35,163 nucleotides of DNA, taken from a virus (Duplodnaviria > Caudoviricetes). Numbering within the stretch: position 1 is the first letter of the stretch; each line of letters opens with the position of its first letter. The stretch spans positions 1-35,163 of the IMG/VR virus record IMGVR_UViG_3300014208_001455. One strand, 5' to 3'. Under the pieces are notes generated by a model, which did not search any database, was not told the DNA's origin, and was given only the letters and a program-made list of their open reading frames with translations. Of the stretch, positions 3,824 to 32,180 are shown piece by piece. A program made the translations under genes and the position numbers.

Positions 3824-4195
3824 CAGTAGGGCGACGCAAGTCGCTGTGAGGTGGTGATGTCGGACTGTGAGCCGAAGGGTATGGGTGAAAAACCCATTAG
3901 GGCTTCTAAGAACCCCCAGAAACGAGTGGGCCGCCAAACTGGAACTTGGATATATTTCCAAACGAATCGCGACTCGCTACAAGTCAAACCTTGTTCATCA
4001 CCTCTTCACAGCGACCTACGTCGCAATCACGTGCAGAACAGCGTAGGGAAGCGGTCGCCCCGAATGCGTGGGCTAAGGCCTAAACCAGCCTACAAATACC
4101 GTGTCTCCTGTGTGGTGCAAATCCACTACTGCACAACCTACAAACCAAGGGAGGGGGCAATCTGTCCCCACCCTTCGCGGATCAAGGAGGTCACC
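3824..4195 (+). ncRNA. Candidate structured RNA or regulatory leader
   Basis: Long-range helix 3840-3857 with ~3994-4015, GCGAC-GCAA-GTCGC, ATGGGT-GAAAA-ACCCAT and other hairpins. Confidence 0.45.
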
Positions 4196-4390
4196 ATGTA
4201 CATGTTCTTGCAGACGGGGGTCAAGGTTAAGCTCCTCAATGTGGTGTTTTGCCGCGAGACGTACGACGGTATCTGTATGCTCGCGCCGCTCAACCCCAAC
4301 TTCACCTTCGAGACGGAACGTCACGGCACTGTGAAGCTGTACCAGCTCTCGCTTCGCTGGACGGACTTGCTCGACATCAACCCGCACTAG
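4196..4390 (+). CDS. Hypothetical protein (64 aa)
   Basis: Strong SD AAGGAGGT before ATG 4196; upstream extension in ORF track unlikely. Confidence 0.6.
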   Translation: MYMFLQTGVKVKLLNVVFCRETYDGICMLAPLNPNFTFETERHGTVKLYQLSLRWTDLLDINPH

Positions 4391-4399
4391 GAGGACGGC

Positions 4400-4633
4400 A
4401 TGATCACGCTTCGCACGAAGAAGGGAATCCTCACATTCCCGCTGGACAAGGACGGGGTCGCGATTCTGCGGCTCCTCAAGCACCACGCTCCGTTCCTGGA
4501 GCTCGTGGGCAAGGCGGACACCAACACCATCCGCCTCGTTTACCTGGGCGAGATCGAGCTCCCCCACGGGGAAGCTCCTGCGCCTCCCAACGCGGATCGC
4601 GCACAGCTCGCCAAGCTCGGCGGGACGTCGTAA
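4400..4633 (+). CDS. Hypothetical protein (77 aa)
   Basis: SD AGGAGG before ATG. Confidence 0.6.
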   Translation: MITLRTKKGILTFPLDKDGVAILRLLKHHAPFLELVGKADTNTIRLVYLGEIELPHGEAPAPPNADRAQLAKLGGTS

Positions 4634-4728
4634 CCACCGCCCTCTACCATAAGGGCGAAACGGAAGGCACGGGTGACCGCGTAAAAGGTTTGGCCATTCC
4701 TTCTCAAAATGGCCACCTTCTCTCACTT

Positions 4729-5028
4729 ATGAACATCAAAATCTATACAGCGCCAGGATGTAAGCATTGCCACGAGCTCCGCTTGTTTCTCAAGAGCCGA
4801 GGACTGCGCTTTTTCGAGCTCAGCACGAATCAACTCAAAAACGCCAAGGAGGCGGTCAGAATATCCGGACAGATGGGCGTGCCCGTGATCGACATCAACG
4901 GGCAGATTATCGTGGGATGGAATCAGGCGGTTTTGGACAAGGCGATCAGCTTGGGGAGGCACCCGATCATGAACGGTGCGCTGGATGAATTGGCGGATAA
5001 GGAATTCGGAGATGGAAAGAATTCGTAA
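4729..5028 (+). CDS. Glutaredoxin/NrdH-like redoxin
   Basis: IKIYTAPGCKHC (CxxC), SGQMGVPVIDING..IVGW. Confidence 0.9.
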   Translation: MNIKIYTAPGCKHCHELRLFLKSRGLRFFELSTNQLKNAKEAVRISGQMGVPVIDINGQIIVGWNQAVLDKAISLGRHPIMNGALDELADKEFGDGKNS

Positions 5029-5466
5029 ATGGCTATGAAAGTCCTTTTTCTTGACATTGATGGCGTCGTGAATTGTAAAACAACGACACAGCGCCATCGT
5101 GGATATATCGGCATTGATCCCTACATGGCGTTTCTGGTGGGGAGAATTGTCGAAGCAACTGATGCAAAGGTCGTCCTCTCTTCAAGCTGGCGATATTTCG
5201 AGGATGGCCGTGCAGAGGTAGAGCGGCAGGTGGTGAAATGCATCGATGTGACGCCAAATCTTCCGATTTCTGGCGGAGTCGAAGCGTGCGAACGCGGGAA
5301 TGAGATTCAAGCGTGGCTCACAGAACATCCAGAGGTCGAACGCTACGCAATCCTCGACGATGACAGCGACTTTCTGCCAGATCAGCCGCTTTTCAAGACC
5401 TCCTGGGAGACGGGGCTGACGGAGGAGATTGCGGGAAGGGTTATTCAATTTCTAAACGTAAAATAG
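5029..5466 (+). CDS. HAD-superfamily phosphatase resembling the HAD domain of Swiss-Army-Knife RNA-repair proteins
   Basis: VLFLDIDGVVN, VVLSSSWR, RGNEIQAWL, YAILDDD motifs. Confidence 0.8.
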   Translation: MAMKVLFLDIDGVVNCKTTTQRHRGYIGIDPYMAFLVGRIVEATDAKVVLSSSWRYFEDGRAEVERQVVKCIDVTPNLPISGGVEACERGNEIQAWLTEHPEVERYAILDDDSDFLPDQPLFKTSWETGLTEEIAGRVIQFLNVK

Positions 5467-5468
5467 CT

Positions 5469-5630
5469 ATGTGGTTCAAATATGTGTTGATTGTATTTTG
5501 GATAATCGGTGCGATCGGCACCATCAGCATGATAGGCGATGAGCGCAAGCCAATAACAAAGGGAATGGCTATCGCTACGGTAGCGGTGACCGTTGCTATG
5601 ATTTTTGGAATCATCAATTACTGGAAATAA
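5469..5630 (+). CDS. Small two-TM membrane protein (53 aa, MWFKYVLIVFWII...)
   Basis: Hand-translated; fills the gap between neighbours; two hydrophobic helices. Confidence 0.65.
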   Translation: MWFKYVLIVFWIIGAIGTISMIGDERKPITKGMAIATVAVTVAMIFGIINYWK

Positions 5631-5631
5631 T

Positions 5632-5889
5632 ATGCCCATGATTTACATGCCGAGCACCACGGCCAACCTCAAAGAGATGGTGACGCAAGAGGATAGTGTC
5701 CTTGCCGCATTTATGAAGCGCGTGTGGCAGGCGCGCATCTTTGGGCAAAAAGCGTCTATGCTCCCCGCGAAGATGCGCACGAAGGCGATAAACGGGCAGG
5801 TACGGCTCGATGTGGCAGAGGCGCCGGAACCGACGGCGGAGGACGTGGCGAAATTCAGGGAGGAGCTTAAGAAGATGGGGGAGAAATGA
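5632..5889 (+). CDS. Hypothetical protein
   Basis: tATG start 1 nt after previous stop. Confidence 0.6.
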   Translation: MPMIYMPSTTANLKEMVTQEDSVLAAFMKRVWQARIFGQKASMLPAKMRTKAINGQVRLDVAEAPEPTAEDVAKFREELKKMGEK

Positions 5890-5890
5890 T

Positions 5891-7138
5891 ATGCAACAAG
5901 TTATCTCAACCGAAAAAATCCCTATTAAGGTCTGGCTTGATGAAGCAGAACCAGGCGCGATGGACCAAATAAAGCACATCGCGAATCTTCCATTCGCTTT
6001 CCACCACGTCGCCATCATGCCCGACACACATCAGGGCTATGGGATGCCGATCGGTGGTATCCTTGCGACGGAAGGCGTTGTAATTCCGAATGCTGTCGGT
6101 GTTGATATTGGATGTGGAATGTGCGCGGTCAAGACAAACATCACCGACATCACAAAGGATAAGGTCAAGGCGATTCTAGGATGCATCCGTGCGCTCGTAC
6201 CCGTTGGCTTTGAGCATCACAAAGAAAAGCAGGACGAGATGCTCATGCCAAGGGCTGATACTGTAAGTGGACTCAATAATGCAACGCCAGACATAACAAG
6301 GTATCCAGTGATCCATAATGAATATAATTCAGCTCTCAAACAGCTCGGCACGCTTGGCGGTGGTAATCATTTCATCGAATTGCAAAAAGGGAGTGACGGT
6401 TTCGTATGGATCATGATCCATTCTGGCTCGCGTAACCTTGGAAAGAAGGTCGCGGATCATTACAACAAGCTCGCCGTTGAGCTGAACGAACAATGGCATA
6501 CCTCTGTACCGAAGTCATGGGAATTGGCGTTTTTACCGCTTGATAGCGAAGAAGGCGTCGCGTACATGCGTGAGATGCAATACTGCGTAGACTTCGCGCT
6601 TGCCAACCGCAAGCTCATGATGGAACGGTGCAAGCAAGCGATAAGAGAGGTAATCCCGTTGCATCCGTCTATATCCAATCCAGGTGGATTAAGCACATCA
6701 GATCTTCGTGAAACATCTTTTGACCCGATGATTAACATTGCCCACAACTATGCACGTTTGGAAAACCATTTTGGAAAGAATGTTCTGGTGCATCGAAAAG
6801 GGGCTACATCGGCTAGACAGGGGGAGACGGGACTTATTCCGGGGTCCATGGGGTCGAAGTCATTTGTGGTGGTGGGTAAGGGTAATCCTGAATCCTTTAC
6901 GTCTTGCTCTCATGGCGCTGGGAGACGCCTTGGTCGCAAAGATGCGTGTAGAAAACTCAACCTTGAGGAACAGAAAGCTTTGATGGACGCACAGGGCATT
7001 ATTCATGGTATGCGTAATCAAGACGATCTGGAAGAGGCTCCGGGAGCGTATAAACCGATTGAGGAGGTAATGGCGTTTCAAAAGGACTTGGTGGACATCG
7101 TCGTCGAATTATCGCCGCTTGGCGTTGTGAAAGGATGA
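5891..7138 (+). CDS. rtcB: RtcB-family RNA ligase
   Basis: MPDTHQGYGMPIGG, GVDIGCG, LGTLGGGNHF, HSGSR, HNY, HRKGA, IPGSMG, SCSHGAGR, EAPGAYK. Confidence 0.96.
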   Translation: MQQVISTEKIPIKVWLDEAEPGAMDQIKHIANLPFAFHHVAIMPDTHQGYGMPIGGILATEGVVIPNAVGVDIGCGMCAVKTNITDITKDKVKAILGCIRALVPVGFEHHKEKQDEMLMPRADTVSGLNNATPDITRYPVIHNEYNSALKQLGTLGGGNHFIELQKGSDGFVWIMIHSGSRNLGKKVADHYNKLAVELNEQWHTSVPKSWELAFLPLDSEEGVAYMREMQYCVDFALANRKLMMERCKQAIREVIPLHPSISNPGGLSTSDLRETSFDPMINIAHNYARLENHFGKNVLVHRKGATSARQGETGLIPGSMGSKSFVVVGKGNPESFTSCSHGAGRRLGRKDACRKLNLEEQKALMDAQGIIHGMRNQDDLEEAPGAYKPIEEVMAFQKDLVDIVVELSPLGVVKG

Positions 7139-30465: not shown

Positions 30466-30645
30466 ATGCCAAAACACGCTCTCAAAAAGGACGGTGTGAC
30501 GATCGTTCAAATCGTTGCAACACACGATAAAGTATTTGGACTCGGAGACGATCAGCTTGTCTATGAATGGAATCCATCATTTTGTGCTTTCTTACTTATT
30601 GAGCTCAGTGAAGAAGAGAAACGCAATCAGGAGGTGTATCTCTGA
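30466..30645 (+). CDS. Small hypothetical protein (59 aa, MPKHALKKDG...)
   Basis: Hand-translated; preceded by TTGTTC-N17-TAGGCT. Confidence 0.5.
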   Translation: MPKHALKKDGVTIVQIVATHDKVFGLGDDQLVYEWNPSFCAFLLIELSEEEKRNQEVYL

Positions 30646-30726
30646 GCACGCTGTCGAGTCGTAGCTGGGTACTTGACAACAGGGCCGACAAGTGGTTGGC
30701 TCTATCATGAAAACCAAAGATCAATC

Positions 30727-30771
30727 GCTTGTGGCCGCAAGGCCGCCCATTCATGGGGTTCTTAGACGAGC
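30727..30771 (+). ncRNA. Candidate C4-like antisense RNA core
   Basis: GCTTGT[GGCC-GCAA-GGCC]G[CCCA-TTCA-TGGG]GTTCTTAG-ACGAGC three-way junction. Confidence 0.45.
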
Positions 30772-30805
30772 AATTTCTGGGCTAGAAAATAGCCACATTT
30801 CGGCG

Positions 30806-30874
30806 TATAATATAAAAGCCGTCGACAGAAACCGCGTAGCCTAAGAACCGCGCGGGAGTATGTCGGCGGTTTTT
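30806..30874 (+). promoter_or_regulatory. Integrase -10 box and leader hairpin (attenuator-like)
   Basis: TATAAT 30806-30811; AAAAGCCGTCGACA/TGTCGGCGGTTTTT stem with CTAAGAAC loop. Confidence 0.55.
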
Positions 30875-30882
30875 GAATACTT

Positions 30883-32019
30883 ATGAGCACGAATAATTCG
30901 GAACATTTTCAGGCATTCCTCCGATGGCTCGGATGCCAGCATTCCGTGGCCACGGTTGCCAGTTATCGCAATGCGCTTGCGTCACTCATGAAATATCTCG
31001 ATGAGATTGATCGTGAACTTTTGGAGTGTAGTCTGGACGATTTTTCGAAATACATCATCTGGCTTGAAAACAAGGGCCTAAGATCCGGCACGCGCGGGCT
31101 GTACGTGACGTCCTTGAAAACGATGTGGTCATGGCTTCGCAAGCAGGGGATGGTCACGCTCGATGAGAGTATGATCCCAACGCCGAGGGTGGCGAGTGAC
31201 AGACGCTCGTATCCATTTTTGGAGCCGCACGAGTTTACGGCGCTTCTTGGGGCATTCGATGAGTTTTATCCCAAGGAACTGCGCAACAAGACGATTATTG
31301 CCTTCTTGTACGCAACAGGCGTGCGGCTTGGTGAACTTTTGAGTTTGAACGTCGATGATCTCAATCTTGAGCGCATGGTTGCGGTTGTGCGAACTTTCAA
31401 ACGCCACGATCACAAGCGTGAGATTTATTGGGATGAGGAGACCAATCGGCTTTTGGGGAAATGGTTGGAGACCCGTGCGCATGTTCTCCGGACACAGGGG
31501 AGCGGCTGTGAGGCTCTATGGGTCAGCATGGACACGTCACGCCCTCCCGCGCGCCTTGAGCGCCATTGCGTGCAAAAGCTCTTTCGTGCGCTTCGTAAAC
31601 AGCTCGGCATGGATAAGCCTCTCTCACCTCATTCCTGTCGCCACGGCTTCGGCTATCGTGGCGTGCGCAACGATGTGAACCTTCGATATTTGCAGGTTGC
31701 CATGGGGCACGCGAATCTCAAGAATACGATGGTGTACATGGGGTACAAAGAGAAAGAGGTCGAGGACGAGTGCCGTGCGAAGCTCCTGCCGGAAGTCGGA
31801 ACGCTATTGACGGAGTGTCGGGAGAAGAATACTATGTTTATGTATGCCAGTACCAGAAAAAATCGCTCGAAATTCGAGCATAGTCCGCCAATTCGAAAGA
31901 GGCCTTTCTTACAGAGAAATAGCCAAGATTCAGGGCCTTCACGTAAAAACCGTTTGGGACATTATTCAACGAGACCAAGAACGGAAGAAGAAAAAAGCGT
32001 TGTAATGACGGGAGTTTGA
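30883..32019 (+). CDS. int: Tyrosine recombinase/integrase (XerC/D-like)
   Basis: SAM-like N-terminus, LYATGVRLGEL, PHSCRH, MGHANLKNTMVY. Confidence 0.93.
   Translation: MSTNNSEHFQAFLRWLGCQHSVATVASYRNALASLMKYLDEIDRELLECSLDDFSKYIIWLENKGLRSGTRGLYVTSLKTMWSWLRKQGMVTLDESMIPTPRVASDRRSYPFLEPHEFTALLGAFDEFYPKELRNKTIIAFLYATGVRLGELLSLNVDDLNLERMVAVVRTFKRHDHKREIYWDEETNRLLGKWLETRAHVLRTQGSGCEALWVSMDTSRPPARLERHCVQKLFRALRKQLGMDKPLSPHSCRHGFGYRGVRNDVNLRYLQVAMGHANLKNTMVYMGYKEKEVEDECRAKLLPEVGTLLTECREKNTMFMYASTRKNRSKFEHSPPIRKRPFLQRNSQDSGPSRKNRLGHYSTRPRTEEEKSVVMTGV
31807..31835 (+). promoter_or_regulatory. Sigma70-type promoter inside integrase 3' end
   Basis: TTGACG-N17-TACTAT, 8 nt before ATG 31844. Confidence 0.6.
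31844..32005 (+). CDS. Small HTH DNA-binding protein (53 aa) nested in +1 frame of integrase
   Basis: MPVPEKIARNSSIVRQFERGLSYREIAKIQGLHVKTVWDIIQRDQERKKKKAL; classic HTH pattern. Confidence 0.75.
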   Translation: MPVPEKIARNSSIVRQFERGLSYREIAKIQGLHVKTVWDIIQRDQERKKKKAL

Positions 32020-32031
32020 AGGTGTCGGGAG

Positions 32032-32077
32032 TTATCCACAGGCTATCATTGACGGCGTCGGGAGATAGGAGTATAGT
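32032..32077 (+). promoter_or_regulatory. Perfect DnaA box and sigma70 promoter
   Basis: TTATCCACA 32032-32040; TTGACG-N17-TATAGT 32049-32077. Confidence 0.65.
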
Positions 32078-32083
32078 GGTAAT

Positions 32084-32180
32084 TGTAGATTGATTCCACG
32101 CTCCTGAACGCAAGTGAGGTCACGAAGAGTGCCCGCCGGGTAGCACAGTGGAGCAAACGCTAAGCGATCAAATCAACAAA
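32084..32180 (+). ncRNA. Candidate small RNA (~95 nt) of unknown class
   Basis: Between a good promoter and a terminator; ends pair (GATTGAT/ATCAAATC), GCTCC/GGAGC; no credible ORF. Confidence 0.4.

Follow-up and report, generated by a model that had tools for sequence, protein, structure and literature searches.

A candidate RNA key-and-lock ahead of the integrase gene in a Patescibacteria prophage

Ahead of the integrase gene of a prophage from the Patescibacteria (ultra-small, CPR bacteria, which also host the homologous phages) lies what the sequence pattern indicates to be a real and uncatalogued RNA key-and-lock—a small multi-stem RNA with a short open strand complementary to the loop of a hairpin in the integrase leader. 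Pairing of this junction strand with the integrase leader is strongly supported by covariation, and the predicted pairing of two segments of the small RNA with that leader, on the plus strand, is supported. Because the key changes in step with the leader loop, the RNA likely controls the integrase.

The DNA analyzed here, called the window, is a stretch of 35,163 nucleotides that spans almost the entire prophage according to PHROG and Pfam annotation. Its genes all lie on the plus strand in the order RecT, replication initiator, a glutaredoxin-HAD-RtcB cassette, terminase, head and tail genes, and integrase. The features discussed are collected in Table 1.

Table 1. Features of the window, by position.
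Feature	Position	Strand	Basis or remark
Structured RNA, about 360 nt, holding the distal site	3831..4190	+	z -3.79
Distal 12-nt complement with adjoining CAGAAA (3917-3922)	3905..3922	+	Lineage-specific, function doubtful
Two orphan genes downstream of the structured RNA	4196-4390, 4400-4633	+	ORFs
Predicted small-RNA promoter, TTGACA -35	30674..30709	+	Sequence; missed by the consensus scan
Three-way-junction small RNA core: P1, P2 (GCAA loop), P3, open junction strand	30727..30771	+	Folding
Seed (key, site a') GGTTCTTAG	30757..30765	+	Co-varies with the leader loop, 20/20 seed types
3' tail (site b'): TTTCTG plus GGGC	30772..30783	+	Predicted partner: leader internal loop and 5' arm
Predicted internal promoter, TAGAAA-17-TATAAT	30783..30811	+	10/12 consensus matches
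Integrase leader hairpin: outer stem, GAAA/GAGTA internal loop, inner stem, apical loop, T5	30815..30874	+	Covariation, folding
Target loop (lock, site a) CTAAGAACC	30841..30849	+	42 nt before integrase ATG
Tyrosine integrase, 378 aa	30883..32019	+	Pfam PF00589 and PF02899; PHROG 1
Promoter just inside attR, TTGACG-17-TATAGT	32049..32077	+	Consensus scan
attR, diverged copy of the rpsI 3' end (QWSKR-stop)	32095..32163	+	Alignment to attL

The two-part RNA module and its covariation

An earlier note on this DNA had proposed that the core of the small RNA is a three-way junction at 30727-30771 that leaves GTTCTTAG unpaired, and folding bears this out (-17.3 kcal/mol). By itself the junction fold is modest, with z -1.85 on the plus strand and -0.20 on the minus strand, and the three-stem shape was seen by eye in about 16 of 22 representatives, about six being reduced to two stems or a single hairpin. 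The seed 9-mer occurs three times in the 1.23-Mb genome when both strands are counted—all three within this prophage. Rfam returned no match on the window (E<=1) or on 30600-30950 (E<=10), and six weak matches among 20 homologous stretches, none of them C4-type. Assignment to the C4 type is not supported by this check, which was negative for C4 and c4-2 on both window and homologues; as no Rfam family matches, we regard the small RNA as C4/CI-like in design and not as a catalogued member.

The partner of the seed lies at the apex of the leader hairpin, where CTAAGAACC (30841-30849) is indeed, as had been claimed, the exact complement of GGTTCTTAG (30757-30765). The hairpin fold is strong on the plus strand (z -4.15, against -1.91 on the minus strand). 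Its stem covaries, with 14 of 16 pairs changed on both sides among 17 sequences (0 of 500 shuffles) and 91% of the cells pairing, and this covariation includes G-U pairs, which fixes the plus strand. The internal loop, in which GAAA (30828-30831) faces GAGTA (30856-30860), is one we take to be loop-E-like; its GAAA side is invariant among homologues. The tail motif TTTCTG (30774-30779) is the antiparallel complement of CAGAAA (30826-30831), as first described, but only the GAAA of that hexamer is open, the CA being paired at the top of the outer stem in the predicted fold. Likewise, the description of the hairpin as terminator-like holds for the presence of a T-run, but this run is only five long and is not called by the terminator scan.

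The leaders of homologues are likewise predicted to fold shut unaided (-18 to -38 kcal/mol), with site a 26-42 nt ahead of the integrase ATG and the end of the hairpin 1-13 nt short of that codon, a few base pairs extending into it. T-runs of at least five are found in 8 of 18 leaders by a rough count; since they are inconsistent and the closed leader abuts the start codon, occlusion of the start appears more general than termination. An 8-codon upstream ORF (30860-30886) starts in the 3' arm of the leader and has a stop that overlaps the integrase ATG; it was set aside as a conserved feature, being not evident by eye in most homologues.

The promoters given here are consensus matches with predicted starts. 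For the small RNA, the -10 element is uncertain, either TTGGCT at 17 nt or TATCAT at 24 nt; of 18 representatives, 16 have TTGAC at 45-135 nt ahead of the seed, compared with 1.5 (maximum 6) in shuffles. The predicted start of the internal promoter, at about 30817, is the first base of the leader hairpin. Among the 18 representatives, -10-like hexamers are commoner in the interval from seed to leader than in base-shuffled controls (0 of 2000), and strong ones number 12 against 5.5 expected.

Homologous modules were collected by several routes. With the integrase as query, 61 genomes yielded six close loci, and the two-part module is carried by all five of those with upstream DNA; the leader pattern added further loci from the family, from metagenomes, and from GTDB. 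An RNA-blind integrase profile gave 28 viral loci—among the best 15 of these, 11 keep a seed-loop match of at least 7 nt, one has a mismatch (L244 in G555), two are without the module (L234, L236), and for the last the DNA ahead of the gene is missing. By eye, no module was seen at four weak viral loci (L248, L250, L251, L256) or at thirteen weaker family loci (L008-L020; 24-29% identity), the latter probably being host XerC/D. A single-protein search of viral contigs gave no match, and a leader-pattern scan of the same contigs gave 119 stretches with the outer stem in none; a second such scan gave 35 stretches, of which one was borderline and was discarded. In 401 phylum-wide genomes the leader pattern met only the genome of this prophage and one chance match. 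The pattern undercounts, as the integrase-based search gave far more diverse modules. The modules of G555 and G551 (L244, L243) are near-identical; they differ at a single seed base, which abolishes the G555 match and is either a natural mutation or an assembly error. In G549, an apparent second target was rejected, having no clean loop fold; a further stretch there (L317, G549:29330-29420) has no Rfam match, and by eye we take it to resemble glycine-riboswitch motifs.

The strongest evidence for the module is that seed and loop change together. A cognate seed-loop match of 7-10 nt is found in 32 of 35 modules. With one representative per seed (n=20), a match of at least 7 nt is present in 20/20 cognate pairs compared with 13/380 non-cognate ones; this matrix excludes G555, L234, and L236, with which the cognate count becomes 20/23. 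None of 100000 permutations reached the observed sum of 155 (permuted maximum 122), in an analysis for which the site a search window was picked after the data had been seen and two apexes were re-centred by motif. Near relatives differ by compensatory changes at single seed positions (ATTGCAA, ATTGCAG, ATTACAG), and in elements with 98.7% identical integrases three of seven seed positions differ, all of them compensated. The seeds are scattered over a tree with integrases down to about 25% identity, so these cases are largely independent.

The second contact is weaker. Pairing of the tail with its own leader 5' arm beats non-cognate pairing (1 of 100000 permutations, 17 representatives), in a test partly confounded by G+C content; against shuffles of its own arm, z is below 0 in 22 of 22 modules and below -1.65 in 11 of 22. 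At this locus the tail site is weak (z -1.2; six contiguous pairs, rank 8 of 22). The tail-arm pairing reaches bases of the outer stem in 21 of 22 modules, the tested window having included that arm. Of the three sites for which the earlier note called for a co-variation check, the two integrase-leader sites hold—site a strongly and the tail less so—and the distal site does not.

Possible modes of action on the leader

Our preferred reading, held with moderate confidence and drawn from the arrangement of the complementary segments, is that the small RNA would pair at two points with the closed leader, open it, and switch the integrase on. The seed would kiss the leader loop first; then, most plausibly during transcription of the leader, the tail would pair with the 5' arm and at the GAAA internal loop and would free the leader 3' arm, which holds the start region and the T-run. 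The small RNA and the leader would come from separate promoters and act in trans, and read-through from the upstream promoter could give the same effect in cis. With no lambda-type repressor found and with integration separating the early genes from a promoter, the choice of lysogeny or lysis would fall to the level of integrase. Tail and 3' arm compete for the same partner, the 5' arm; such an anatomy is that of activation, and it somewhat favors the opening of a closed leader over repression. Trans activation of a closed phage leader has a precedent in IsrK (PMC4825925, in part).

By rough energies that ignore kissing-loop geometry, 20 of 22 modules would sooner bind through the loop only than open fully, and in 10 of 22 the complete opening is uphill, so that a finished hairpin would probably stay shut. 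Other considerations also count against opening. BPs-type integrases may excise unaided (PMC3694055, in part), and by analogy a constitutive activator of such an integrase would destabilise the lysogen unless an excisionase is needed; the level of an integrase of that kind would have to be kept down during lysogeny (PMC3694055, in part). C4 and CI repress, which by the same kind of comparison would suggest repression here. Finally, the tail is weak at this locus, L234 and L236 lack the module, and the seed of G555 is mismatched.

The opposite sign, as for C4 and CI, is possible though somewhat unlikely in our estimate, which also takes in a hybrid with opening in cis and blocking by free RNA. 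Here the free RNA would clamp the leader, or block the cis copy on a read-through transcript, and the integrase would be silent during lysogeny; excision would follow if the RNA were lost. Loop-only binding, which leaves the hairpin intact, is favorable in 22 of 22 modules, and the promoter is present in both states and would give a continuous supply of RNA. The integrase enters its SAM-like domain at once at the N-terminus, with no arm-binding domain matched by Pfam, which would also suit a clamp. In addition, c4 blocks translation (PMC12197685, in part) and CI causes termination (PMC4825925, in part). However, the leader is predicted to be closed already by default, the tail competes with the leader 3' arm, and no activating partner of at least 7 nt for the loop is seen downstream near the integrase start; we also infer that an incoming phage with a repressed integrase would stay circular and lytic.

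In a purely cis arrangement, junction and hairpin would form a single leader transcript with a long-range kissing or antiterminator fold and no free RNA. The two parts are always 63-144 nt apart on the same strand, at this locus no clear terminator separates them, and a single transcript is predicted to accommodate both folds. We nevertheless judge this arrangement unlikely: an internal promoter is enriched between the parts, with a start that here would fall exactly at the hairpin, and the fast turnover of the seed beside a near-fixed integrase fits specificity between phages better than an intramolecular helix. That the matches are inverted DNA sites for a protein (an integrase arm or an operator), or chance, is very improbable—short inverted repeats are common near integrase genes and the junction fold alone is weak, but seeds differ between the 98.7%-identical integrases, both halves lie in predicted single-stranded loops of strand-specific folds, and chance is excluded by the permutation test.

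Prophage layout, lysogeny, and known systems

The left attachment site, attL, is the 3' end of rpsI (C6:15364-15436), about 550 nt left of the window, and its alignment to attR scores 66.5 against a shuffle maximum of 38. Integration at rpsI is common to G509, G032, G006, G021, and G523. A second clade with the same RNA module (L005, L006, L007, L297) has an att site that differs from rpsI; by eye, we take it to resemble dif and to adjoin an ftsQ-like gene. Directly upstream of the RNA module, G032 has by eye a reverse-transcriptase-like ORF (L002:2674-3753), possibly part of a diversity-generating retroelement, and L003 has an IS256-like transposase. In the whole genome G000, ARAGORN finds 46 tRNA genes and no tmRNA.

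A search with PF01381 (HTH_3), which covers the HTH_3 fold only, gave no match in five phage records, four of them at least 90% complete, or inside four prophages (controls positive, 14/14). PHROGs gave no repressor among 114 selected ORFs of three complete phages, and no excisionase was identified. In the complete phages, the RNA module, the integrase, a gap, and then recombination and replication genes follow each other on one strand. A TTGAC-17-TAnnnT promoter lies between the integrase and attR in 10/10 integrated elements examined; its direction is outward from the prophage, and only excision would bring the early genes in front of it. A terminator follows attL in 4/4. Pairing across attP, of sequence left of attR with the attL terminator region, lies about 4 sd beyond shuffles in G509 and about 3 sd in G466, is weak in G469, and was not seen at this locus; it is possibly an antiterminator that exists only in the excised circle.

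As no HTH_3 repressor was matched and a promoter lies inside attR, control of the integrase may be the lysis-lysogeny switch. The RNA-based lysogeny circuit suggested in the earlier note is plausible from this prophage layout; the arm that was to reach the small genes is not upheld. More tentatively, lysogeny here could run without a repressor protein: integration would sever the early operon from its promoter, a fast-evolving RNA key-lock would set the integrase, and the seed would define immunity or quorum groups. If so, this would be an RNA-addressed recombination switch, and integration alone may silence the prophage by severing the promoter.

C4 is a three-stem junction with two segments, a' and b'; C4 and P4 CI RNAs are processed from a longer precursor, with a role for RNase P, and P4 is not known to have a classical repressor. 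With c4 of P1/P7 (RF01695; c4-2), the RNA described here shares its form as a small multi-stem RNA upstream of its target on the same strand, the three-stem junction (in the about 16 of 22 representatives given above), and two antisense segments that co-vary with the downstream target, site b more weakly. The exposed segments of c4 differ between related phages, which underlies heteroimmunity, and are likewise variable here (PMC12197685, in part). The target of c4 is the icd-ant ribosome-binding site, whereas here it is the leader of a tyrosine integrase; c4 blocks, whereas this RNA is predicted to open its leader, and the hosts are Patescibacteria. An upstream site of the a1/b1 or seqA type, with a complement of at least 6 nt to the 7-nt seed core, was found between promoter and seed in 0 of 20 modules (mean complement length 3.7 for cognate and 3.9 for non-cognate pairs). 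The c4-a1b1 motif is listed without an Rfam accession in the table of PMC2864571 (in part).

P4 CI has in common with this module a control by RNA only and a target downstream within the same leader (PMC4825925, in part). However, CI controls a replication operon and not an integrase, and here there is no seqA-like site and a second promoter separates RNA and target. Small junction RNAs with short variable segments are described for both c4 and CI (PMC12197685, PMC2864571, PMC5737381; each in part). The Gifsy-1 RNA IsrK is likewise a short phage RNA that activates a closed downstream leader in trans (PMC4825925, in part); it differs in its target (orf45-anrP) and its fold, and the module here has no Rfam match, a kissing loop, and a fast-changing seed. 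In integration-dependent immunity of the BPs type, as would be the case here, recombination sets the state and the level of integrase is decisive (PMC3694055, in part). BPs has attP inside the repressor gene and relies on integrase proteolysis (same source, in part), compared with a severed promoter and RNA control here; these elements have their att site beyond the integrase on its downstream side, in the 3' end of rpsI or at a dif-like sequence, not in a repressor gene, and PF01381 has no match.

We found no description of this RNA in the literature covered, although related motifs may be described in the PMC5737381 supplement and in the motif text (S1.DOC) of PMC2864571, which lie outside that coverage; nor did we find the choice or maintenance of lysogeny by CPR phages addressed. 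The module would carry RNA control in the manner of C4/CI over to an integrase, and also into another phylum, perhaps with its sign reversed. In addition, the roughly 20 natural key-lock pairs are largely orthogonal in sequence (13/380 cross-matches) and offer a compact, testable candidate switch—they could become small RNA switches for synthetic biology.

The distal site at 3905 and its cassette

The third site named in the earlier note is a genuine match: 30755-30766 is the exact 12-nt complement of 3905-3916. Such a match is unusual, being expected about 0.0008 times under a Markov model or about 0.006 times when judged by one match in 2.6 Mb of other loci. The same RNA could act through this site on the genes at 4196-4633 as well, as a lineage-specific second target compatible with the other readings, and the rarity of the match, a net binding of about -9 kcal/mol, and the adjoining CAGAAA would fit such a role; on balance we find it doubtful. 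For all 12 nt to pair, the small RNA must give up two P3 pairs and one P1 pair (5.7 kcal/mol). The distal site, at a distance of 280 nt from the first ATG, is itself mostly predicted paired (5.1 kcal/mol to open). The CAGAAA at 3917-3922 sits 3' of the main match, which reverses the order of the two segments in the leader, and a G/C run makes up part of the match.

Comparison with relatives also counts against this role. In the three closest prophages (G509, G466, G469), with head and terminase genes 50-68% identical to those of this prophage, the cassette is absent and no 7-nt target is present in that region; by eye, methyltransferase-like genes replace the structured RNA, the orphan genes, and the RtcB cassette. 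A count over 15 phages and prophages, of which several are incomplete, gives 25 distal cognate 7-mers (one of them a self-match of the leader, another a duplicate) compared with 29.5 expected from non-cognate seeds, and so no excess. A further copy of the seed at an early gene is likewise not established, with 2 copies near starts where 1.4 are expected and a total of 41 compared with 28. On these comparisons, the 3905 site is outside the conserved circuit, and neither a three-site circuit nor the co-regulation of the genes at 4196-4633 that had been proposed is supported.

Against Rfam, the best match of the structured RNA is poplar-1 (E 0.74), far under the cut-off; its sole homologue candidate proved coding and was rejected, and no homologue was found. 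The orphan gene of 77 aa has one other homologue, and that of 64 aa has none. Within the RNA, a stem of about 20 bp closes a multibranch domain, followed by a T-arm/acceptor-like domain at 4041-4135; the latter was rejected as a tRNA, as ARAGORN at low stringency calls it tRNA-like along with 40 other sites. The cassette at 3831-7138 holds this RNA, the two orphan genes, glutaredoxin, HAD_SAK_2, and RtcB, and could serve in RNA repair, bringing along the RNA that it acts on. From 3851 to 4390, a frame of 179 codons without a stop crosses the structured RNA in frame with the 64-aa gene, which we take to recall the read-through frame of P4.
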